DNA from: a virus | Length of the DNA: 42,239 nucleotides | Virus genome (UHGV): UHGV-0380056 | Reading direction: 5' to 3' (one strand) | Shown here: piece by piece, positions 3,887 through 24,833 of the stretch | Numbering within the stretch: the stretch's first letter is position 1 | How the letters are laid out: each line of letters opens with the position of its first letter | Program-made: the position numbers and the translations under genes | The notes under the pieces: model-generated | The model's database searches: none | Told to the model about the DNA's origin: nothing | Seen by the model: the letters and a program-made list of their open reading frames with translations, nothing else

Positions 3887-4432
3887 TTACACCTCCTTAT
3901 ATTTGAATATGTAGCCTTTTGTTTGCTTATAATTTCCGAGTAGGACTTGCCGTATGCCAGAAGGGTTTATTTTTAATCTCCTACCGCATTCATTAATACT
4001 ACGATACTCATTATACTCACCGTTTGCAATATCTATTGCAATAATGCTATTACTATTTTGAGTTTTACGTTGTGTAATTGATCGTCTATATAATGACGTA
4101 CCGTGATTAATATTTTCCTTAGATGTGACCCATTCTAAATTATCTAATGAATTATTTGTTTTATCCTCGTCAACGTGGTTTACTTGTGGTTTGTTTTCAG
4201 GATTTGGGATAAATGCTTCTGCTACTAAGCGGTGGATAGGTCGTTTTCTTTTTACACCGTTATTTGATAAGTGTACTCTTAAGTACCCATCCTTAGTTGG
4301 TATGGGTTTAAGTATCCGTTCAACTCTTAAGTTTCCTCTGCTATCATATCGTAGAAGTGCTTTAACTCTCCCAGTATTACTCACCTGATAAAGTCATTCA
4401 TATCCTTTAATATCTTTCCAAATTTCTTCCAT
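3887..4432 (-). CDS. HNH homing endonuclease (NUMOD4 + HNH_3) with an in-frame TGA at 4394..4396; the 165-aa ORF restarts at GTG 4384
   Basis: A strong AGGAGG ribosome-binding site precedes ATG 4432, giving [12 protein letters not shown], then TGA, then [11 protein letters not shown].... Its paralogues here read [27 protein letters not shown]_3 motif: [41 protein letters not shown]. Confidence 0.75.
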
Positions 4433-4674: not shown

Positions 4675-4744
4675 TTATTCTACCTCCCTTATTGTATTGT
4701 TGAGCTAAAAGCTAACTCCCTTATACTTATAATTATATCATATA

Positions 4745-4776
4745 AAAAGAACCCTGTGTACAGAAACCAGGGTTCA
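4745..4776 (-). terminator. rho-independent terminator (minus strand)
   Basis: gaaccctg-gtttctgtaca-cagggttc hairpin, followed on the minus strand by a T5 run. Confidence 0.5.
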
Positions 4777-5013
4777 ATCTTGGTTATAGGGGGAACAATC
4801 GTATAAGTGAAATAACATACTATATATAGTATGAATCCTTGATTTTCAACACAAGAAACCAGATTTAAATCACGTTTACGAGGGGAAAATGACGTTTTTA
4901 AAAGTTGGTTTTGGGACTTTCATGCTAAGAAGAGACCTCAGCGATCCTGCTCCATGAAAAAGGTACGCCCCGTTAAAATATTTTACGCTGGTTAGAAAAT
5001 ATTTCTGGCTGAC
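4777..5013. other. ORF-free region between the packaging HNH and the terminase genes; candidate cos / terminase-recognition region
   Basis: No ORF on either strand. Contains an 18-bp perfect palindrome (4816..4833) and an imperfect 20-nt direct repeat ACA(G)AAACCAG..TT.AAATC at about 4758 and 4849. Sits in the HNH-cos-TerS position typical of HK97-like phages. Confidence 0.35.
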
Positions 5014-5403
5014 CTAAAAATTCTTGCCTCCAGTTTTCCAGCTGTAGCGATGTTCTTCTTTGTTATGACAGCTGTAACAGATTGATTCTAAATTATTCAT
5101 ATCTAATCTGTGTTCCCATCCATTTGGACTTCTTAGTTCAATAATATGATGAACCATGTCTGCTCTGGTTAACCTACCTTCATTGGCACATACCTCACAT
5201 AGAGGTGACTGCATAAGCTTAGCCTTACGAGTCTTACTCCATTGTGTGGATTTATAGAACGCATTATACTTAGCATTGAAGTCGTTACTCCTTACATGTT
5301 TATTGTACTGCTTATCTGATAAGCCTGAGTGCTTAGCACAATAGGTAGCTGGTAACTGCACTCTCTCTCTACACATTGGCGCTCCACATATTCGTTGTGG
5401 CAT
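5014..5403 (-). CDS. packaging-associated HNH endonuclease (HK97-type, needed with terminase for cos cleavage)
   Basis: C..C plus an HNH core: CEVCANEGRLTRADMVHHIIELRSPNGWEHRLDMNNLESICYSCHNKEEH. Located next to the terminase module. Confidence 0.8.
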   Translation of the reverse strand: MPQRICGAPMCRERVQLPATYCAKHSGLSDKQYNKHVRSNDFNAKYNAFYKSTQWSKTRKAKLMQSPLCEVCANEGRLTRADMVHHIIELRSPNGWEHRLDMNNLESICYSCHNKEEHRYSWKTGGKNF

Positions 5404-6220: not shown

Positions 6221-6243
6221 TATATCTCCTCCTCTTTGTTTCT

Positions 6244-6290
6244 ATTATATCATAGATAAGGGATTGTGTGTGAACTGATTAGACCAGTTA
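6244..6290 (-). promoter_or_regulatory. leftward promoter with extended -10 (TGATATAAT) preceded by TCACACACAA
   Basis: Minus strand reads ttcacacacaatcccttatctaTGaTATAATagaaac, lying 25 nt upstream of the RBS of the 6032..6220 ORF. Confidence 0.45.
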
Positions 6291-6640
6291 GTAATGACAA
6301 AAAATAAGCCTAAAATTGTCATTTTGTCATTAATTCGCTTGTTTTTGTCATTGTTTTGTCACTAATTTTGACACCTAAAAACGCTGTATCCCTTGATATA
6401 TCTACATTCTTATTTTTACAATGACAAAATGACAAAATATTTTATATATTGATTAAAAAATAGATGTATTACATTATAATGTAGTATATAGATATATATA
6501 AAGAGTATGGCACTTTTTTTGTCATTTTGTCATTAAACTGGTCTCTTTCCTAGAGTATCAAGGGTTACAGCAATTTTTGAAACGTCATTTTAGTGTCATA
6601 TAGTGACAAAAACGCAAAATTAGTGACATTTTTAATCTTT
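6290..6640. repeat. iteron cluster: at least 12 copies of TTGTCATT / AATGACAA in both orientations (several tandem pairs), flanking an AT-rich core with a 14-bp palindrome TACATTATAATGTA (6468..6481)
   Basis: Tandem pairs: ttgtcattttgtcatt (6324..6339 and 6509..6524) and aatgacaaaatgacaaaat (6420..6438). Single copies: gtcattgttttgtcac, gtgtcatatagtgacaaaaa, tagtgacattttt. Interleaved 9-bp inverted repeats: agaccagtt (6281) with aactggtct (6536), and cccttgata (6390) with tatcaaggg (6556). Confidence 0.6.
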
Positions 6641-6644
6641 TCTA

Positions 6645-6673
6645 TTGACAATGGTCTCTAAGCATGCTATACT
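6645..6673 (+). promoter_or_regulatory. consensus sigma-A early promoter TTGACA-17-TATACT
   Basis: TTGACA 6645..6650, 17-nt spacer, TATACT 6668..6673, followed by the conserved leader taattcataaagtaagaggagg. Confidence 0.6.
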
Positions 6674-6703
6674 TAATTCATAAAGTAAGAGGAGGAAACA
6701 ACA

Positions 6704-6940
6704 ATGACAACAATGACACATGAAAAATACAACGAACTACAAAAGAAAATGGACAAACTGGTTAGCGACTTCGTAGACGAAATGGCAGAAATTGAAAGCT
6801 ATGAAGATCTTGACATGACTTCAGAATGGTTAGACGAACAAATACATAACATTTTCAGATGGGCGAATACAAATGATGAAAAAGTTCTTGCTGAACTACA
6901 CGCTGACTATTCAAAACTAAATGAGATGTTAGAATGTTAA
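6704..6940 (+). CDS. hypothetical acidic early protein (78 aa)
   Basis: First early ORF after the promoter. Rich in D/E residues (MTTMTHEKYNELQKKMDKLVSDFVDEMAEIESYEDLDMTSEWLDEQ...). Confidence 0.5.
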   Translation: MTTMTHEKYNELQKKMDKLVSDFVDEMAEIESYEDLDMTSEWLDEQIHNIFRWANTNDEKVLAELHADYSKLNEMLEC

Positions 6941-8799: not shown

Positions 8800-9309
8800 A
8801 TGGAAGAGATTTGGAAAGATATTAAAGAATATGAAGGACTATATCAAGTAAGTAACTTGGGGAGAGTTAAGAGAGTTACAACAGGTAGAATTTTGAAAGG
8901 TAGTAAAGATAGAGGTGGGTATCTAGTAGTTAATTTATCTAAAAACAATAGTGGTTCTATGAAGAAAATTCATCGCCTAGTAGCTCAAGCGTTCATACCA
9001 AACCCAGAAAACAAAGCAGAGATTAATCATATAGACGAAGATAAGACAAACAACATGCTTTCAAATTTAGACTGGATGACGAGAAAAGAAAATAATAATC
9101 ACGGAACTAGAACAGACAGAATGGCTAAAACGCGAAGTATTCCAATCATTGCAATCAATCTAAAAACGAATGAATCTACAGAGTTCTATGGAGCTAGTGA
9201 ATGCGCTAGAAAACTAGGGTTACATCAACCAAGCATTACACATGTACTAAACGGCAGACGTAAACAAACTGGTGGATACACGTTTAAATATAAGGAGGAG
9301 CGGAAATAA
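8800..9309 (+). CDS. HNH homing endonuclease (NUMOD4 + HNH_3 + C-terminal DNA-binding module)
   Basis: [25 protein letters not shown]; [42 protein letters not shown]; C-terminal [13 protein letters not shown]. Confidence 0.85.
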   Translation: MEEIWKDIKEYEGLYQVSNLGRVKRVTTGRILKGSKDRGGYLVVNLSKNNSGSMKKIHRLVAQAFIPNPENKAEINHIDEDKTNNMLSNLDWMTRKENNNHGTRTDRMAKTRSIPIIAINLKTNESTEFYGASECARKLGLHQPSITHVLNGRRKQTGGYTFKYKEERK

Positions 9310-10895
9310 TGAATGAACTAACGAAAATTGACTATTCAGCACCAGTTGAAGAGTTACTACCAGTTTCAAATAAAAACTTTCCAAGTGAGGAGTTTGTGGA
9401 TTTCAAATCAGAGCTAGGACGAATGTACTATGGAGGAAAAGACGGCACACAACCAAAATTTGAGATTCAACAGGAATTATTTATTGATAAATTTAACCAA
9501 CTAGCATATGTGTACGCTCACCCTAACTTAAACGCGCCATACGTATACAATGCAGACACACGTATCTGGTCTGAGGTAAATCTAGGTAGTTACAAATATT
9601 CAGATTGGTATTTTGAGAACATTTTATCACCAAAATTCACACCACAATTCAGAAACCCAGAGTTTGGGAATGAAATTCGTAAGGAAATGAAGAAATTAGC
9701 ACCTGAATTGGCTAATCGCTCTATGACACGTGGAGAACAGGCACCACTAGGTGACAACCCTAACCCTAACATTATCGCATTTGAGAATGGCACGTATGAC
9801 TTTAAAACAAATGACATTCGTGAAACAAGGTTGGAAGATTATCATACACTTCAACTACCATATCCTTTAATTAAGACAGATGAAACAGATGAATTACTAG
9901 CTAAACAATGGATTGATTATTTGCTGAAAGACCAAGCCCAGACATTATATGAGTATATTGGGTACATGTATTATAGAGAGTACAAATATCAATCTATTTT
10001 ATACCTATTAGGTAATGGTTCAAATGGTAAATCTTACGTTGGGGGGTTTATCATGAACAAATTAATTGGGTTCAAAAACAGTTCAGCAGTTGGCCTAGAC
10101 AATTTAGCAGATAAGAGCAACCGTTTTGATAAAGCTTCATTACACCATAAATTATTGAACTTTGAAGCTGATTCAAGTGCAAACTTTGTAAAAGGTACTG
10201 AGACACTGAAAAAACTTTCAGGTGGTCTTGATGCTGTTCACGCTGAGAAAAAAGGAAAAGATGCGTTTAGTTTTACCAATTATGCAAAACTAATGTTCTC
10301 AATGAATGAGCTGCCAGCCTTTAACGACCGCACAAATGGATGGTATAGACGTATTCTTATCCTAAACTTTAACACTAATCTTGATACACCAGAAGCACGT
10401 GAACGCATTAATGAGTTCAACAAACAACGTGAGGAACGTGAGTCAAAAGAGCAACTAGGTAAATTTGCATGGTTCTGTATTCAACAATTTAAAAAGATTT
10501 TAGACGCTGGTACAAATGGTGAAAACCCATTCACAGAGACAGAAGATATGATTGCCTTCAAGAAAGCTTACATTGAATCAAATGACCCATCTAAAGAGTT
10601 TTTGAGTGAAGTACCTGTCATTGTGGAAGATGAAGAAGGAACCGTTAACCTAACACTATTGAAGAATATTTTTAACGTGTACACGAAAGAGAATAATATT
10701 AATAAGTCAATGAACTGGCGCACCATGAAAGAATTATTATTGAAGCAAGGCTTTGAGGAAAAACGGACAAGTAAAGCACGAGTACTAACTGGTCTAAAGA
10801 TTGCACGTAATGGAGATGCTGACGCGGTTAAACCTTATCTAATGAACGCACTAGCAGGGACAGAGTATGTAAATATTTTCAATGATGTAGAATAG
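9309..10895 (+). CDS. DNA primase-helicase (D5 N-terminal / P4-type SF3 ATPase)
   Basis: Walker A YLLGNGSNGKSY, with a downstream Walker B / D5-like region. Confidence 0.7.
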   Translation: MNELTKIDYSAPVEELLPVSNKNFPSEEFVDFKSELGRMYYGGKDGTQPKFEIQQELFIDKFNQLAYVYAHPNLNAPYVYNADTRIWSEVNLGSYKYSDWYFENILSPKFTPQFRNPEFGNEIRKEMKKLAPELANRSMTRGEQAPLGDNPNPNIIAFENGTYDFKTNDIRETRLEDYHTLQLPYPLIKTDETDELLAKQWIDYLLKDQAQTLYEYIGYMYYREYKYQSILYLLGNGSNGKSYVGGFIMNKLIGFKNSSAVGLDNLADKSNRFDKASLHHKLLNFEADSSANFVKGTETLKKLSGGLDAVHAEKKGKDAFSFTNYAKLMFSMNELPAFNDRTNGWYRRILILNFNTNLDTPEARERINEFNKQREERESKEQLGKFAWFCIQQFKKILDAGTNGENPFTETEDMIAFKKAYIESNDPSKEFLSEVPVIVEDEEGTVNLTLLKNIFNVYTKENNINKSMNWRTMKELLLKQGFEEKRTSKARVLTGLKIARNGDADAVKPYLMNALAGTEYVNIFNDVE

Positions 10896-10907: not shown

Positions 10908-11405
10908 ATGAAAGAAATTTGGAAAGATATTGAAGGATATGAAGGAGTTTATCATGTGAGTAACTTAGGACGAGTGAAGAGAGTTGCAACAAATAGAGTT
11001 TTACAACCATATAGAAACAAAGTTGGCTATTTACTAGTTTATTTATGTAAAAACGGTAAGCGTAAAACTCATAGAATCCACCGTTTAGTAGCACAATCTT
11101 TCATACCAAACCCAGAAAATAAACCAGAAGTTAATCACCTAGACGAAAATAAGATTAATAACATGGTTTCAAATCTAGAATGGTCAACTAGAAAAGAAAA
11201 CTGTAACTATGGAACACGTAATGAAAGACTTAGTATCCCAATTATAGCAACTAAGCTAAAGACTGGTGAATCTAGAGAGTTCTATGGAACTAATGAATGT
11301 GCTAGAAAACTAGCGTTAAATAATGCACACATTACAAGTGTTCTAAAAGGTAGATTGAAACAAACAGGTGGATACACATTCCAATATAAGGAGGAAGAAG
11401 GATGA
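10908..11405 (+). CDS. HNH homing endonuclease (NUMOD4 + HNH_3)
   Basis: MKEIWKDIEGYEGVYHVSNLGRVKRV; [28 protein letters not shown]; C-terminal KQTGGYTFQYKEEEG. Confidence 0.85.
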   Translation: MKEIWKDIEGYEGVYHVSNLGRVKRVATNRVLQPYRNKVGYLLVYLCKNGKRKTHRIHRLVAQSFIPNPENKPEVNHLDENKINNMVSNLEWSTRKENCNYGTRNERLSIPIIATKLKTGESREFYGTNECARKLALNNAHITSVLKGRLKQTGGYTFQYKEEEG

Positions 11406-14815: not shown

Positions 14816-15352
14816 ATGGAGGAACAGTGGAAAGATATACCGTTATTAAGTAGATATCAAATAAGTAGCTTGGGTAGAGTTAAATCAAAACAAAGAACTA
14901 CTAAATGCAACAAAGGGGTTATAAATAGAAAAGAAAGACTTATGACACCTCAATTAAGAGGTAAAAAAGGGTATGAATATGAGTGTATTAGATTGAAAAC
15001 AGATTTAGGATATACCAAATATTACAGTATCCATCGTCTAGTAGCTCAAGCATTCATACCAAATCCTGAAAACAAACCAACAGTAGACCATATCAATCGT
15101 GATAGGCTAGATAATAGGGTTAAAAATTTAAGATGGGCAACATATGAGGAACAGCAGTCTAATAAAATAGTTTCAACAGGACAAGCAAAGATACCTGTAA
15201 AAGCTATTGATAAATCAGGTAATGTATATTATTATGATGGTGTTATAGAAGCATCAAAAGCGTTGGATGTTGACACTGGAACAATATGTAAAGTACTATC
15301 TAATAAGTATATTAATAAAACAGGTGGAGGTTATTATTTTGAAAAAAATTAA
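14816..15352 (+). CDS. HNH homing endonuclease (HNH_3)
   Basis: [38 protein letters not shown]-terminus ...[10 protein letters not shown]. Confidence 0.8.
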   Translation: MEEQWKDIPLLSRYQISSLGRVKSKQRTTKCNKGVINRKERLMTPQLRGKKGYEYECIRLKTDLGYTKYYSIHRLVAQAFIPNPENKPTVDHINRDRLDNRVKNLRWATYEEQQSNKIVSTGQAKIPVKAIDKSGNVYYYDGVIEASKALDVDTGTICKVLSNKYINKTGGGYYFEKN

Positions 15353-16088
15353 ACGATTACGAATTAAGAAAAACGCAAAGTCACCACTGGTGGCAGGAGC
15401 ATTCCAAGGTGAAGATGATCAATTAGTTGATAAATGGATAGCAGAAGGAGGAAATGTAGCCTATGCTACTGGACAAACAAGTGGTATTGCGGTAATAGAC
15501 ATTGATAATCACAATGGAGTAGATGGGCTTAGTAACTTGAAAGAGTTCTTGGATACTTATGATATTGAGTTACCAAAAACTAAAGTTGTTAGGACACCAA
15601 GCGGAGGTTATCATTACCATTTTAAACTTGATGATAAATATAATGACGTACAATTCATTCAAAATCATTCTCAACTAGAAGGAGTTGATTTTCAAACACA
15701 TGGCAGAATAGTATTAGCACCACCTAGTCAAATTGACGGAAAGTATTATGAAGTAGTGCGTGACGTAGAACTCGCAGAACTACCTGAGAAATGGTTAGAA
15801 ATGTTCACAGATAAAACGATTACAAAAAAGAATAAGAAGCGCGAGAAGAAATGGACTGGTCAATTAATGGAAAGTATACTTACTGGTGCAGGCGCTGGGT
15901 CAAGAAATATATTTTTAGCCTCAACAATCGGTAAGCTATTCGCAACAGGAATGGATCATGACGCGGTTAGGGTATGGAGCTTATATGTAAACCAGATTTC
16001 ATTAAATCCACCACTACCAGAAGAGGAGGTGTTAAGAACATATGAATCAGTTAGAAAGCGTGAATTACGAAGAATGGCGGACGATTAA
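15337..16088 (+). CDS. primase-polymerase (PrimPol / archaeo-eukaryotic primase-like domain), probably TTG start
   Basis: [12 protein letters not shown]...[13 protein letters not shown]...[17 protein letters not shown]. The Shine-Dalgarno GGTGGAGG is provided by the HNH 3' end. Confidence 0.65.
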
Positions 16089-16578
16089 AGGATATGAAGG
16101 TAGATATGAGGTTAGTAACTTAGGTAGAGTTAGAAGTTTAAATTACAATAACCAAAAAGGAAATATAAAAGTTAGACCAAGTGTTCCTCATAAACATGGG
16201 TATAGACAAATTAAACTAGGTAATAAAAGCAAATTAATCCACCGTCTAGTAGCAGAAGCATTTATCCCAAACCATGAAAATAAACCTTGTGTTAATCATC
16301 TGGACGAGGATAAGACAAATAATAGAGTTGATAACTTAGAATGGGTAACAAAGAAAGAAAATAACAATTATGGTACTAAGAATATTAGAAGCGCATACAA
16401 GAATAAATACATTTCTGGAAACTTCAAATCCGTAAGTTGCTCAAATGGAGTAGAGTATTTTAGTGTGTCAGAAGCTTGTCGTCAATTAGATTTAGACCCA
16501 AGTACTGTCGTAAAAATTCTAAAAGGTACACGTAAAAGTACTAGAGGCTACACCTTTAAATATAAGGAGGAAGAGTGA
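16042..16578 (+). CDS. HNH homing endonuclease (NUMOD4 + HNH_3)
   Basis: [21 protein letters not shown]; [28 protein letters not shown]; C-terminal [12 protein letters not shown]. Confidence 0.85.
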
Positions 16579-16918: not shown

Positions 16919-17320
16919 ATGTTTAAAATTGGAGATAAAGTTACAGTAACGGAATACAGCAATAAGAGTTATATTGGACTGCAAGGTTTCATAACTGACA
17001 TAAATCACACCATTTATCCAATAAGAGTATACTTAGGTGAAGAAGGGTTTCACTCCTTTAATCCGCAACAGTTAACCCCTTACAATAAAAATAATGAAGA
17101 TGAAGAACTACAAAACACCAAACGTTACAGAACCAACTCAGGTAAACAACTCTTTGACATATTAGAAGATGATTTACTAACATATGAAGAATTACGTGGT
17201 TTCTACAAAGCGAACATTTACAAATATACACATAGATATAAACAAAAGAACGGCATTGAAGATTTGAAAAAAGTCAAGGTCTATGTAGACCAACTAATAA
17301 AATTGGAGGAAAAGAAATGA
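16919..17320 (+). CDS. hypothetical protein with an N-terminal KOW/SH3-like barrel and a C-terminal DUF3310-like region
   Basis: MFKIGDKVTV... and a C-terminal motif ...LTYEELRGFYKANIYKYTHRYKQKNGIEDLKKVKVYVDQL. Confidence 0.45.
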   Translation: MFKIGDKVTVTEYSNKSYIGLQGFITDINHTIYPIRVYLGEEGFHSFNPQQLTPYNKNNEDEELQNTKRYRTNSGKQLFDILEDDLLTYEELRGFYKANIYKYTHRYKQKNGIEDLKKVKVYVDQLIKLEEKK

Positions 17321-17790
17321 TTAACTTTGAACAACTGTCGCCCCCATATGACAAATACTCAGTAACAAATGAGGGGCATGTGATGGATATTGACACAGGC
17401 GTGTATGTGAAGGAAGAGATTGATTATAAATCAGGTAAACAATATGTTGTACTACATGGCTCACATACGAAATCACGTAAGTTTTTTATAGCGCCAATAG
17501 TTGCAGAAATGTTTGTACTGAACAAACACAACCTTGGTTACGTGTATTATAAAGATGGAAACGTTCAGAACAACCATGCTGATAACTTGGGGTATGCTAT
17601 CAATCCTAAAGAAGCGCAACAAAGAGTAGCACGTCCTCACAGATTAGAGGTAGAGGATGAACGACACGAACTCATTATAAAAATAAACAACGCTTGTGAT
17701 AAAAAGGACTATAGAGAAGCTAATCGCCTGGGTAAAATACTATGGGAATTGGAAGGAAGTTCATATAATGACAGACATGAAGAAGTTTGA
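17317..17790 (+). CDS. HNH_3-type endonuclease, divergent (157 aa)
   Basis: YYKDGNVQNNHADNLGYA resembles the H-N-N-L core of HNH_3. Confidence 0.5.
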   Translation: MINFEQLSPPYDKYSVTNEGHVMDIDTGVYVKEEIDYKSGKQYVVLHGSHTKSRKFFIAPIVAEMFVLNKHNLGYVYYKDGNVQNNHADNLGYAINPKEAQQRVARPHRLEVEDERHELIIKINNACDKKDYREANRLGKILWELEGSSYNDRHEEV

Positions 17791-21105: not shown

Positions 21106-21639
21106 ATGAATGAAATTTGGAAAGATATTGAAGGATATGAAGGGTTGTACCAGGTTAGTAATTTGGGGAGAGTTAAATCTTTTGATAGTATAGATAAGTT
21201 AGGTAGAATACGTAAAGGTAGAGTTTTGAAAGGTATTAAAGATGTAAAAGGGTATCTACTAGTTAACTTATATAAAAACAGTATTGTATACACTAAGAGA
21301 CTTCATCGTTTAGTAGCAGAGACATTTATCCCAAATTCAGAAAACAAACCGCAAGTTAATCATATTGACGAGAATAAGGCAAATAACATAGTTTCAAATC
21401 TTGAATGGATGACTGCTAAGGAAAATATTAATCATGGAACACGTAATGAAAGAATGAGTAGAACGCAAAGTATTCCAATCATTGCAACTAATATCAAAAC
21501 AGGTGAATCTCAAGAGTTCTATGGAACAGCTGAATGTGCTAGACAATTAGCTTTGCATCACGGAAATATCACATCAGTTCTAAAAGGTAATCGTAATCAC
21601 ACTGATGGTTACACATTCAAATATAAAGGAGTAGAGTAA
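21106..21639 (+). CDS. HNH homing endonuclease (NUMOD4 + HNH_3)
   Basis: MNEIWKDIEGYEGLYQVSNLGRVKS; [28 protein letters not shown]; C-terminal TDGYTFKYKGVE. Confidence 0.85.
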   Translation: MNEIWKDIEGYEGLYQVSNLGRVKSFDSIDKLGRIRKGRVLKGIKDVKGYLLVNLYKNSIVYTKRLHRLVAETFIPNSENKPQVNHIDENKANNIVSNLEWMTAKENINHGTRNERMSRTQSIPIIATNIKTGESQEFYGTAECARQLALHHGNITSVLKGNRNHTDGYTFKYKGVE

Positions 21640-22553: not shown

Positions 22554-24833
22554 ATGAAAAACATTGCAGAATTTAAAGGTGCTGAAACGTTAGCAAGTAA
22601 GCTGTTAGAAATATTCGCAGCACTTGCTGGCAATGGTAAAAGTTTTGACCCAATGATTGAAGGCGTCCATCAAGTGATAGTGATTAAAGCAGAGGAACGA
22701 CTAAGTGCTAAAGGTAAAGAAATGAAAGAGATTAAAGTACGTAGCACAAAAGATGGTCGTGATGCAACATTTTATATTATGAAGTTTCGTAAGCAAGATT
22801 GGAAAACTTGGGAAAATATAGAAGTTGGACAGCAGTTAATGATTACTCTAAAATACAACAATGGTTTTCCAAATGTAACCATTAATCAAAAAGGATCAGT
22901 AATTGATAATTTACCTGAGAAACCAAATGAGGCACTAACAAAACAAACAATCTATATTTATGACATTGAAGTATTTAAAAAAGATAATTTGTATATATTC
23001 AGAGATTATTTCACTAAAGAATGGACAGTTATTCATAATAATTTGGACGCTTTACGTAAGTTCTATCTAGCAAATAGAGATTCGTTGTTTGTAGGTTATA
23101 ACTCACATTCATATGACTCAAATGTCATGCGTGCTTATTTACAAGGCAAAAACCCATTTCATGTGTCAAAAGCAATCATTGAAAGTGATGATAGAGGTTT
23201 AGTATATAAAATGTTTGATACTAAAAAAACACCACTTTTTGGAATGGACTTGTATCAAGACAATAGAGGCTTCAGTTTGAAAGAGCATAGTGCTTTCTTA
23301 GGTATCAACATTAAAGAAACTGATGTAGACTTTGACTTAGATAGAGAACTAACAGAAGAAGAGCAAGTATTGAATGAACTGTACTGTAAGAATGATGTGT
23401 TAGCTACTGAAAAACGTTTTGAACAAAACATAGGTATGTTAGTAGCTAAGGCTGCAATTGCATTATACTTTGGTTTAGATAAAATGGCACTGTCAATGAC
23501 AAACGCAAACTTGACTGCTGAACTATTAGGGGCTGAAAAAACACCTGATAGAGGTGACGAGTTAGATAAGTATGAACTACCAGAAGGATTTGAAATTGAG
23601 TCAGAAACCATTCGTCAGGGGTTTATGACAGATGAATTTGAAGCTAATGATAAAGGACATGCTAGTATTTCATTAGATGTACCACGTAGAGACGTAACAG
23701 AAGTATTAGGAGTAGGTGGTATCCATGGTGCTAAAGAGTCATTTATTCATGTAGGTAACTTCCACGCACGTGATGTAGGTTCATTGTATCCAAACACAAT
23801 GGTGCTGTTTGACTATTTGTCAAGAAATATTCCAGAAGAAAAAAGACATATCTATCAAATGTTATTAGACGAACGTATGGAAGCTAAGTATTCTAATAAA
23901 GAATTTACTGAAATTAAAGGCGTTCAGATTCCAACCAAGTTGCTAATTAATGGGTATAAGCTACCTCTAAACACTAAATATGGAGCAATGGGAGCTGAGT
24001 TTAATAAACTGTATGACCCACGTATGCGGTTGTTAGTATGTATCACTGGTCAGATGGCAATGTGGGATTTACTAGAAAAGATTGAAAACCATGCTACTAT
24101 TATTCAATCAAACACAGACGCACATTATTATATTCCATTCAGTGAAGAAGATGAAAAAGCCATTGATGATATTGCAAATGATTGGATGAAACGGACAGGG
24201 TACACTTTAGATGATGATCCATTTAAAGCTATTTTCCAGAAGGACGTAAATAATTATTTGGCTGTTACATCAGATGGCAAAGTTAAGTTTAAAGGTGCTA
24301 TAGGACTAACTAATGGGTTGAAAGTATCTAAAGCAATTGTGTCAAATGCCTTTATTAACTATGTGGTTGCTGGTAAAGACTATAAAGAGTTTATTAATGA
24401 GTGTGACGAACTACGTCAGTTCCAAATGATTACGAAAACAGGCTATACTTTTGATGATACTGTGGTACGTGATAGTAAAGGTAATGAAATGAAAGCACAA
24501 AAAGTAAACCGTACCTTTGCAATAAAAGACCCTAATAAAGCTGTTGAAATATTCAAAGTTAAACATGGAGCGGTTATTGAAGAGGAAGGCACAACCATTG
24601 TTGGTGATGATTCATACACTAAAGGATTAGCTAATGCACCTGAGTATTATGCCATTGATAATGAAGCTATTGGTGAAGGATGGATAAATCTTGATGACAT
24701 TGATAAAGAGTACTATATAAACCAGGTAGAAGATTTACTAGTAATGTGGTTTGGCACAAATTGGAAAGAGAGAATTGAACAGGCTCATAGTCAAATAGAT
24801 GATTTTCCAGAAGTTAAAAATTATATTGATTAA
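22554..24833 (+). CDS. DNA polymerase, divergent family B (3'-5' exonuclease plus polymerase domains)
   Basis: Exo I: IYIYDIEVF. Exo II: FVGYNSHSYD. Motif-B-like: KLLINGYKLPLNTKYGAMG. Motif-C-like: IIQSNTDAHYY. Confidence 0.65.
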   Translation: MKNIAEFKGAETLASKLLEIFAALAGNGKSFDPMIEGVHQVIVIKAEERLSAKGKEMKEIKVRSTKDGRDATFYIMKFRKQDWKTWENIEVGQQLMITLKYNNGFPNVTINQKGSVIDNLPEKPNEALTKQTIYIYDIEVFKKDNLYIFRDYFTKEWTVIHNNLDALRKFYLANRDSLFVGYNSHSYDSNVMRAYLQGKNPFHVSKAIIESDDRGLVYKMFDTKKTPLFGMDLYQDNRGFSLKEHSAFLGINIKETDVDFDLDRELTEEEQVLNELYCKNDVLATEKRFEQNIGMLVAKAAIALYFGLDKMALSMTNANLTAELLGAEKTPDRGDELDKYELPEGFEIESETIRQGFMTDEFEANDKGHASISLDVPRRDVTEVLGVGGIHGAKESFIHVGNFHARDVGSLYPNTMVLFDYLSRNIPEEKRHIYQMLLDERMEAKYSNKEFTEIKGVQIPTKLLINGYKLPLNTKYGAMGAEFNKLYDPRMRLLVCITGQMAMWDLLEKIENHATIIQSNTDAHYYIPFSEEDEKAIDDIANDWMKRTGYTLDDDPFKAIFQKDVNNYLAVTSDGKVKFKGAIGLTNGLKVSKAIVSNAFINYVVAGKDYKEFINECDELRQFQMITKTGYTFDDTVVRDSKGNEMKAQKVNRTFAIKDPNKAVEIFKVKHGAVIEEEGTTIVGDDSYTKGLANAPEYYAIDNEAIGEGWINLDDIDKEYYINQVEDLLVMWFGTNWKERIEQAHSQIDDFPEVKNYID

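Follow-up and report, generated by a model that had tools for sequence, protein, structure and literature searches.

The DNA analysed here, a stretch of 42,239 nucleotides that we call the window (virus genome UHGV-0380056), is a nearly complete ~42-kb genome of a lytic, cos-type Enterococcus faecium siphophage of the IME-EFm1/IME-EFm5/dArtagnan group, and its longest non-coding stretch is a 483-bp gap (6221-6703) filled with short repeats between divergent late (leftward) and early (rightward) units. The question raised by this locus is what the repeats are for and which protein reads them. The closest DNA records to the window are 80-87% identical to it, none of them spanning most of the query. 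From 6220, the leftward block encodes small ORFs, an HNH endonuclease (5014-5403), the small and large terminase subunits and the portal, and it continues across the end of the window with genes for head, tail and lysis proteins. The rightward block, from 6704, is the early/replication operon, in which many small ORFs without known function accompany an SNF2-type helicase, a Prim-Pol, a DNA polymerase and the product of 9309-10895, annotated as "DNA primase" in relatives; the predicted polymerase completes a phage-encoded replisome. The initial annotation had described the gap as the only long non-coding stretch in the genome, which is wrong, as a second one of 339 bp lies at 4675-5013. This second gap is probably the cos region, because the record ends of IME-EFm1, dArtagnan and Aramis map to approximately position 4935 of the window, beyond the HNH gene. 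The termini of the dArtagnan and Aramis genomes were themselves predicted with PhageTerm (PMC11210271).

As developed below, we consider it likely that the 6221-6703 gap is a bidirectional replication origin of the type found in staphylococcal pathogenicity islands (SaPI), read by the phage's own self-loading helicase; this bears out the initial suggestion of a candidate origin made up of iterons around an AT-rich unwinding element. The literature searched on this phage group makes no mention of an origin. The cumulative GC-skew minimum of the window falls in the gap, but it carries little weight, as the genes change strand at the same place. A scan of the whole window against Rfam returned zero known RNA families, and therefore nothing indicates a described RNA in the gap.

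The repeat unit is the 8-mer TTGTCATT, appearing as AATGACAA in the opposite orientation. Eight exact copies were found within 6244-6700, five on the plus strand (6316, 6324, 6345, 6519 and 6527) and three on the minus strand (6293, 6420 and 6428), with a ninth at 6703 and a single other copy, at 23495, in the whole window; about 0.05 copies of TTGTCATT would be expected per 483 bp (Poisson P ~8e-16). When one mismatch was allowed, 10 sites were detected in the gap, not counting one at 6644 that overlaps the -35 box by chance, and two weaker variants (6582-6589 and 6593-6600) bring the array to ~13 sites. An AT-rich core (6436-6518) divides them into a left set of seven and a right set of six. 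The figure of at least 12 copies given by the initial annotation is therefore too high for exact copies. Outside the gap, the motif TTTGTCAYT occurs once in the whole window. Three tandem pairs had been reported, and these were all recovered, with an 8-bp period, at 6316-6331, 6420-6435 and 6519-6534.

The array possesses a large dyad symmetry with its centre at 6476.5, and its inner pairs constitute a perfect 18-nt inverted repeat (6420-6437 with 6517-6534, 100% complementary) around the AT-rich core (Table 1). The segment 6428-6507 has a GC content of 14% and a nearest-neighbour dG of -77.9 kcal/mol, compared to a window mean of -98.7 (sd 5.1), which makes it the least stable 80-mer in the 42 kb, approximately 4 sd off the mean. 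The AT-rich core pointed out initially is therefore the weakest 80-bp duplex of the window, and the 14-bp palindrome TACATTATAATGTA described within it is also present. Both of the 9-bp inverted repeats that had been noted were located, agaccagtt (6281-6289) with aactggtct (6536-6544), and cccttgata (6390-6398) with tatcaaggg (6556-6564). The second of them extends to 22 nt with 86% complementarity (6377-6398 with 6556-6577), and as a single strand the segment 6370-6585 is predicted to fold into one long hairpin (dG -32.8 kcal/mol; z = -6.0). A hairpin element of the form GCTGTATCCTT-ACTCTCCC-AAGGGATACAGC is kept in every lineage regardless of helicase type; in the window it survives as two halves, arms X and X', that bracket the core, X being the left half.

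Table 1. Features of the 6221-6703 gap and of the associated replication genes, in window coordinates.
Feature	Position	Strand	Remarks
Late-operon promoter, extended -10 TGATATAAT, no -35 box	6244-6252	-	~25 nt upstream of start codon 6220
AGACCAGTT element	6281-6289		Inverted partner of AACTGGTCT at 6536-6544
Outermost left iteron AATGACAA	6293-6300	-	TGTCAY site here in 8/8 group A phages
Left outer cluster: TTGTCATTTTGTCATT (6316-6331), TTGTCATT (6345-6352), TTGTCACT (6356-6363)	6316-6363	+	
Arm X, AAAAACGCTGTATCCCTTGATA, of the 22-nt inverted repeat bracketing the core	6377-6398	+	
Inner left tandem pair AATGACAAAATGACAA	6420-6435	-	Directed away from right pair; invariant in 8 phages
AT-rich core, proposed DNA-unwinding element	6436-6518		83 bp
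Central palindrome TACATTATAATGTA	6470-6483		14 bp, at dyad centre 6476.5
Inner right tandem pair TTGTCATTTTGTCATT	6519-6534	+	
Arm X', TATCAAGGGTTACAGCAATTTT	6556-6577	-	Partner of 6377-6398
Right outer cluster: ACGTCATT (6582-6589, +), GTGTCATA (6593-6600, +), TTGTCACT (6602-6609, -), ATGTCACT (6622-6629, -)	6582-6629		
Early promoter TTGACA-17-TGcTATACT	6645-6673	+	11/12 consensus positions, upstream TG
Two extra motif copies, AATGACAA and AATGACAC, in opening codons of first early gene	6703-6719	-	Uncertain as binding sites
SF3 self-loading helicase ("DNA primase" in relatives' annotation)	9309-10895	+	528 aa; proposed initiator
Prim-Pol/PriCT_1 primase	15267-16088	+	Pfam; separate gene, presumed primer at opened origin
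DNA polymerase	22554-24833	+	94% identical to annotated dArtagnan and Aramis polymerases (B-family there)

Comparison with relatives revealed that the repeats are under stronger constraint than the DNA around them. Among the eight phages of group A, eleven TGTCAY sites were found at fixed positions, even where the right half of the gap could not be aligned, and invariant columns made up 92% of the iterons compared to 71% of the rest of the gap (Fisher p = 4e-6). The sites at 6324, 6345 and 6356 are kept in all group A phages, the one at 6316 is intact in the window and KEN22 only, and the right outer cluster is conserved in the five closest relatives. In group C (IME-EFm5, Aramis, KEN18 and KEN21) the TGTCAY core is retained, but the sites are arranged differently. 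TGTCAY is almost absent from group B (IME-EFm1 and LG62), where the conserved late and early promoters enclose about six copies of TTTTGTGTMCC instead. In metagenomic contigs encoding homologs of the helicase, a late and an early promoter always enclosed inverted iteron pairs, which in turn flanked an AT-rich core centred on a palindrome. The AATGTA repeats near the helicase gene of phage Max (Efquatrovirus) were discarded as a comparable iteron locus, being coding and all in one orientation.

The central palindrome differs in sequence between lineages. The form TACAY-N4-ATGTA is retained in subgroups of group A and in group C, whereas other palindromes occupy the centre in dArtagnan/BUCT630/RG1, in group B and in lineage L029, so that every lineage has some central palindrome. 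No protein co-varying with the palindrome type was found in the ORF identity table described below (68 ORFs, nine genomes). We also considered the palindrome as a promoter, given a possible face-to-face pair of -10 boxes; this role is unlikely because TATAAT is lost in relatives that keep TACAY-N4-ATGTA.

Both promoters bounding the array are conserved. At the leftward one, the initial annotation had paired TCACACACAA with TGATATAAT; the extended -10 sequence TGATATAAT holds and is conserved in all relatives, but TCACACACAA is not a -35 box and a consensus promoter scan made no call at the 6252 site. The block around this promoter (alignment A1, columns 20-45) shows no variation among 8 phages and is retained in groups B and C. 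The late gene blocks contain 11 TGNTATAAT sites on the minus strand, TGATATAAT among them, and most of these sites fall in the gaps that precede late genes. The rightward TTGACA-17-TATACT promoter was found as originally described, and the block that contains it (6645-6703) is conserved across many Enterococcus siphophages, with an annotated promoter in phage Max. The outer iterons lie 15-45 bp from both promoters.

The statement that no Rep/initiator gene is adjacent to the repeats turned out to be misleading, as a gene for an initiator-type SF3 helicase lies 2.6 kb downstream of the gap within the same early operon, and in two related lineages (IME-EFm1 and LG62; L028) the gap is upstream of and close to the helicase gene. 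Its 528-aa product harbors the Pfam domains D5_N and DUF5906 and scored 127.6 with the P4-family model TIGR01613, for which the cutoff is 108.7. The sole sequence match in the PDB was PriRep5 of SaPI5 (7OLA; E = 3e-10), and the best Foldseek matches were 7OM0 and 7OLA (E ~1e-11 to 2e-11; 417-457 aligned columns), the sequence identity with PriRep5 being 16-18%. No primase domain was found in the protein with Pfam, and by its predicted domain content it is a helicase and not a primase. In AF2 models, residues 412-498 adopt a helix-helix-beta-hairpin-helix-helix-wing topology that includes a helix-turn-helix with a beta-hairpin wing at approximately 448-498, and we propose this winged-helix-like C-terminal domain (residues ~433-500) as the putative reader of the iterons. 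A fold search with the isolated domain (model pLDDT 71) returned nearly exclusively winged-helix DNA binders, the best of them with a non-significant E value of 0.05.

To ask which protein changes together with the repeats, we compiled a tblastn identity table of the 68 ORFs of the window against nine genomes, seven with TGTCAY repeats and two of group B. The ORF at 9309-10895 was the sole one of the 68 with at least 95% identity in 7/7 TGTCAY phages and 29% in IME-EFm1 and LG62. Over groups A, B and C, no other ORF in this table changed along with the iteron, and the other replication proteins did not show this pattern; the SNF2 helicase of the window, for instance, has its nearest counterpart in group B. 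The binder had been guessed to be either the primase-helicase or one of the small early proteins, and this comparison singled out the former, whereas the small early proteins that are conserved in group B fail to explain the change of repeats. As the variant helicase gene of group B adjoins the gap, these data suggest that the origin core and the helicase gene may be exchanged as one module.

The correspondence extends to more distant lineages. The iteron is TTGTCAYT in the window and in groups A and C, whose helicases are 95-98% identical to that of the window; TTGTCTAAATGTCAY in L029 and L030 (80-82% identity); CTACAY, with the pair ACTACATTTTCTACAC, in L028 (75%); AAAGTAACA, in 11-12 copies, in L025 (58%); and TTTTGTGTMCC in group B (29%). 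On this comparative evidence, drawn from a sample of about five lineages, five helicase lineages carry five iteron types within a common architecture, and the iteron sequence appears to be matched to the helicase variant; the helicase is singled out only by the comparison of groups A and C with group B, because the distant lineages differ in many other genes. In the lineage with 75% identity, the ATPase core of the helicase is 97% identical to that of the window, in contrast to 57% for the N-terminal domain and 67% for the C-terminal one. Residues 466-498, which span the predicted recognition helix and wing, are identical at 33/33 positions in 7/7 TGTCAY phages, which carry 1-10 substitutions elsewhere in the C-terminal region, whereas in the lineages with altered iterons 26, 23, 14, 12 and 11 of these 33 residues are identical.

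We infer binding, melting, loading of a double hexamer and firing of the origin to proceed as follows. After injection, the host RNA polymerase would fire the early promoter at 6645, from which the SF3 helicase, the Prim-Pol and the DNA polymerase would be made. The winged-helix-like C-terminal domain of the helicase would then recognize the TTGTCAYT iterons, with the opposed tandem pairs (6420-6435 and 6519-6534) and the outer clusters placing helicase assemblies on both flanks of the core. The 83-bp core would melt, one hexamer could be loaded per side, and the two hexamers would travel apart, the Prim-Pol priming and the polymerase extending behind them. Concatemers would later be cut at cos, ~1.5 kb leftward.

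An origin of this kind is already known. The SaPI origin has 6-12 short iterons and a central AT-rich region, with at least two iterons per side in opposite orientation, and the SaPI Rep helicase reads them through a C-terminal winged helix and self-loads, probably as two hexamers (PMC9371898). The window resembles it in its helicase, which belongs to the same SF3 family and has PriRep5 as its best sequence and fold match; in two opposed iteron sets with at least two sites per side round an AT-rich centre, formed by the inner pairs of the perfect 18-nt repeat; in an iteron specific to the helicase variant, which in the window group is suggested by the lineage comparison; and in the presence of a primase partner, separate or fused. 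It differs in that the putative origin belongs to a lytic siphophage and not to a satellite, and is placed between divergent early and late promoters, with the helicase gene 2.6 kb downstream of it, while the SaPI origin is located just 3' of rep. In addition, its iterons are 8-mers in tandem pairs with an 8-bp period, and its ~13 sites, slightly above the 6-12 of SaPI, are accompanied by two extra conserved elements, the palindrome at the centre and the 22-nt inverted repeat around the core. What the analysis usefully adds to this known scheme is the co-variation between helicase and iteron, together with the segment of 33 residues proposed to confer specificity.

Within the enterococcal phages, a 2026 report on Abitsa, a siphophage of the genus Efquatrovirus, independently puts forward a SaPI5-like origin predicted by computation only, with seven 10-bp iterons round an AT-rich region and a PriRep5-like self-loading helicase (PMC13517437). 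Abitsa is thus an Enterococcus siphophage with a likewise computationally predicted origin; it belongs to another genus and has 10-bp iterons compared to the 8-mers of the window, and the passages of that report considered here do not mention a co-variation analysis (PMC13517437). The helicase of another Efquatrovirus phage, Max, is 31% identical to that of the window.

Further parallels are found outside this host. The satellite phage P4 has octamer iterons in both orientations, which are read by the C-terminus of its primase-helicase. The P4-family domain of the window helicase likens it to the P4 alpha protein, which differs in having a fused primase, whereas the Prim-Pol of the window is encoded by a separate gene. 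P4 also has a second cis element, crr; the window has no crr-like element, because outside the gap there is one stray motif copy only. Among lactococcal phages, c2 and sk1 and the "Per" origin fragments offer another parallel: in these lytic siphophages, whose host is likewise of the lactic-acid type, the origin occupies a non-coding intergenic region, rich in direct and inverted repeats, from which early and late units diverge. Their replication proteins differ, and the c2 origin probably requires transcription and not a helicase that binds iterons.

The location of the gap also invites explanations that give the repeats no part in replication. They might be the operators of an early/late transcription switch, bound by a phage or host regulator that would silence the early promoter and activate the late one: the early promoter (6645) and the first late promoter (6252) delimit the array on its two sides, its outer sites are at a short distance from both, and the late promoter may need an activator because it has no -35 box. 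We consider this reading improbable, as it leaves the inverted pairs round the least stable segment of the genome unexplained, the other late promoters of the TGNTATAAT class have no TTGTCAYT nearby, and the small early ORFs conserved in group B cannot account for a change of repeats with which the helicase alone co-varies. Moreover, none of the early ORFs could be recognised as a regulator, a repressor or an HTH protein. Searches of the flanking and early ORFs with PHROGs and Pfam found no repressor, integrase or HTH regulator, and the annotated relatives likewise have none. A temperate switch of the CI/Cro type was discarded, since neither a repressor nor a Cro-like gene nor an integrase was found. 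The initial suggestion of a genetic switch without a recognisable repressor was not sustained either: none of the early proteins was recognised as an integrase, repressor or other transcription regulator, and dArtagnan and Aramis, phages of the window's cluster, are described as virulent (PMC11210271). A packaging signal (cos/pac) or a non-functional recombination scar is very improbable indeed. The gap does lie upstream of the packaging genes, and one public assembly, vB_EhiS_268, begins inside it, but in the records of IME-EFm1, dArtagnan and Aramis both ends fall in the other gap, at ~4935, which led us to reject a cos/pac site in 6221-6703; the repeats are also more constrained than their surroundings.

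A different objection accepts the origin and assigns the iterons to another reader, either a separate small initiator in the style of lambda O or of a plasmid Rep, or a host factor that recruits the helicase. By inspection, the known host DnaA, CtsR and Spo0A boxes show no fit to TTGTCAYT. The many early ORFs without known function leave room for a separate initiator, and the C-terminus of the helicase cannot be assigned to the winged-helix fold with statistical confidence. However, when groups A, B and C are compared, the helicase is the one ORF that changes with the iteron, its predicted recognition segment varies in step with the iteron sequence, and the homologous SaPI Rep proteins need no loader (PMC9371898). 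A host factor would not account for five different iterons, given that the named phages all have Enterococcus hosts (mostly E. faecium). On balance we regard a separate reader as quite unlikely.

Returning to the preferred reading, a SaPI-type origin read by the phage helicase, the number of sites (~13) and the outer clusters abutting the promoters are more than a minimal SaPI origin has, and may have a function in transcription as well. In an extended version, which we put forward tentatively and think unlikely, the origin would double as the early-to-late switch: the helicase bound to the outer iterons, or the first forks, might silence the early promoter and license the late promoter without a -35 box. 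The lineage-independent hairpin element would in this version be a separate signal on melted DNA, addressed to a third reader and exposed, for example, for priming by the Prim-Pol.

The proposed pair of origin and initiator would be a concrete one for lytic phages under development against vancomycin-resistant E. faecium. Helicase and iterons, apparently swapped as a unit, may define replicon specificity groups, with a bearing on recombination and on compatibility in phage cocktails, as well as on phage engineering and on interference by a cloned origin that would titrate replication factors. The relation between residues 466-498 and the iteron sequence offers a lead on DNA recognition by self-loading SF3 helicases. 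The accepted view of the mechanism of such origins is left unchanged by this analysis.

Beside the iterons, an ACCAGTT/ACTGGTCT element was observed near both promoters. At the late side, (A)ACCAGTT is conserved in all lineages at the position corresponding to 6281-6289, and at the early side ATGGTCTC, a sequence related to AGACCAGTT, comes after the -35 box of the early promoter.

A hairpin element, GCTGTATCC(C)TT-ACTCTCCC-AAGGGATACAGC, was found to be kept in the origin gap, the non-coding stretch that holds the proposed iteron origin, of all the helicase lineages compared. [quoted passage not shown] The centre of the core is occupied in every case by a palindrome (window and equivalents in loci L002, L003, L004, L008 and L029), the sequence of which varies among loci: TACATTATAATGTA, ATATGC-N6-GCATAT, TGGTATATACCA or TATATGTATATATACATATA. 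No protein co-varying with the type of central palindrome was found in the tblastn comparison of the 68 window ORFs with nine genomes.

In the public assembly of vB_EhiS_268, a related phage, the contig (L015, CAJDKB010000002.1) begins at the equivalent of window position ~6433, within the proposed origin and at the border of the inner iteron pair. The inverted repeat probably broke the assembly here, and the contig start would then not be a physical end. Furthermore, two extra copies of the iteron motif (ATGACAACAATGACA), with a 9-bp period, cover the start codon of the first early gene and the codons that follow it (6703-6719), and may represent either chance occurrences or an additional putative helicase site across the translation start.

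Features of the window and of related loci
Feature	Positions	Strand
Early-class promoters, TTGACA-17-TATACT	6645, 14755, 18396, 18510, 24838	plus
Late-class sites, extended -10 TGNTATAAT	1577, 3290, 3400, 4740, 6252, 27554, 30071, 33285, 37038, 38335, 41745	minus
Hairpin element, window (halves)	6377-6398, 6556-6577	
Hairpin element, L008	2628-2660	
Hairpin element, L028	~9268-9300, ~9418-9445	
Hairpin element, L029	~2514-2545, ~2696-2722	
Central palindrome, window	6470-6483	
HNH/homing-endonuclease ORFs	3887-4384, 5014-5403, 8800-9309, 10908-11405, 17317-17790	
HNH/homing-endonuclease ORFs, probable	14816-15352, 16042-16578, 21106-21639	

Promoters of the window fall into two classes, early and late, split by strand. 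The late-class sites, the majority of which lie in gaps 5' of late genes, are devoid of a -35 box. This strand-specific division suggests that late transcription works in a separate mode; no activator gene for it was recognisable in the window phage.

A second long non-coding gap (4675-5013, 339 bp) separates an HNH gene from the gene upstream of terS. Because the alignment of the IME-EFm1 record start runs downward from window position 4934, and the records of dArtagnan and Aramis each stop 80-90 bp beyond their own HNH gene, this gap is probably the cohesive-end site, with a predicted cos at ~4935-4950.

The density of HNH or homing-endonuclease ORFs in the window is unusually high, and the helicase gene is flanked by one at either end. 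Phages otherwise alike differ in whether they carry these ORFs, a variability consistent with active homing and mosaicism. Regarding the helicase (9309-10895), wherever a related GenBank record gives the product a name, that name is "DNA primase"; one record lists it as hypothetical. The domains recognised in the ORF, D5_N and DUF5906, are all of helicase type, and the true primase, as predicted from sequence, is a Prim-Pol encoded apart from it by its own gene at 15267-16088.
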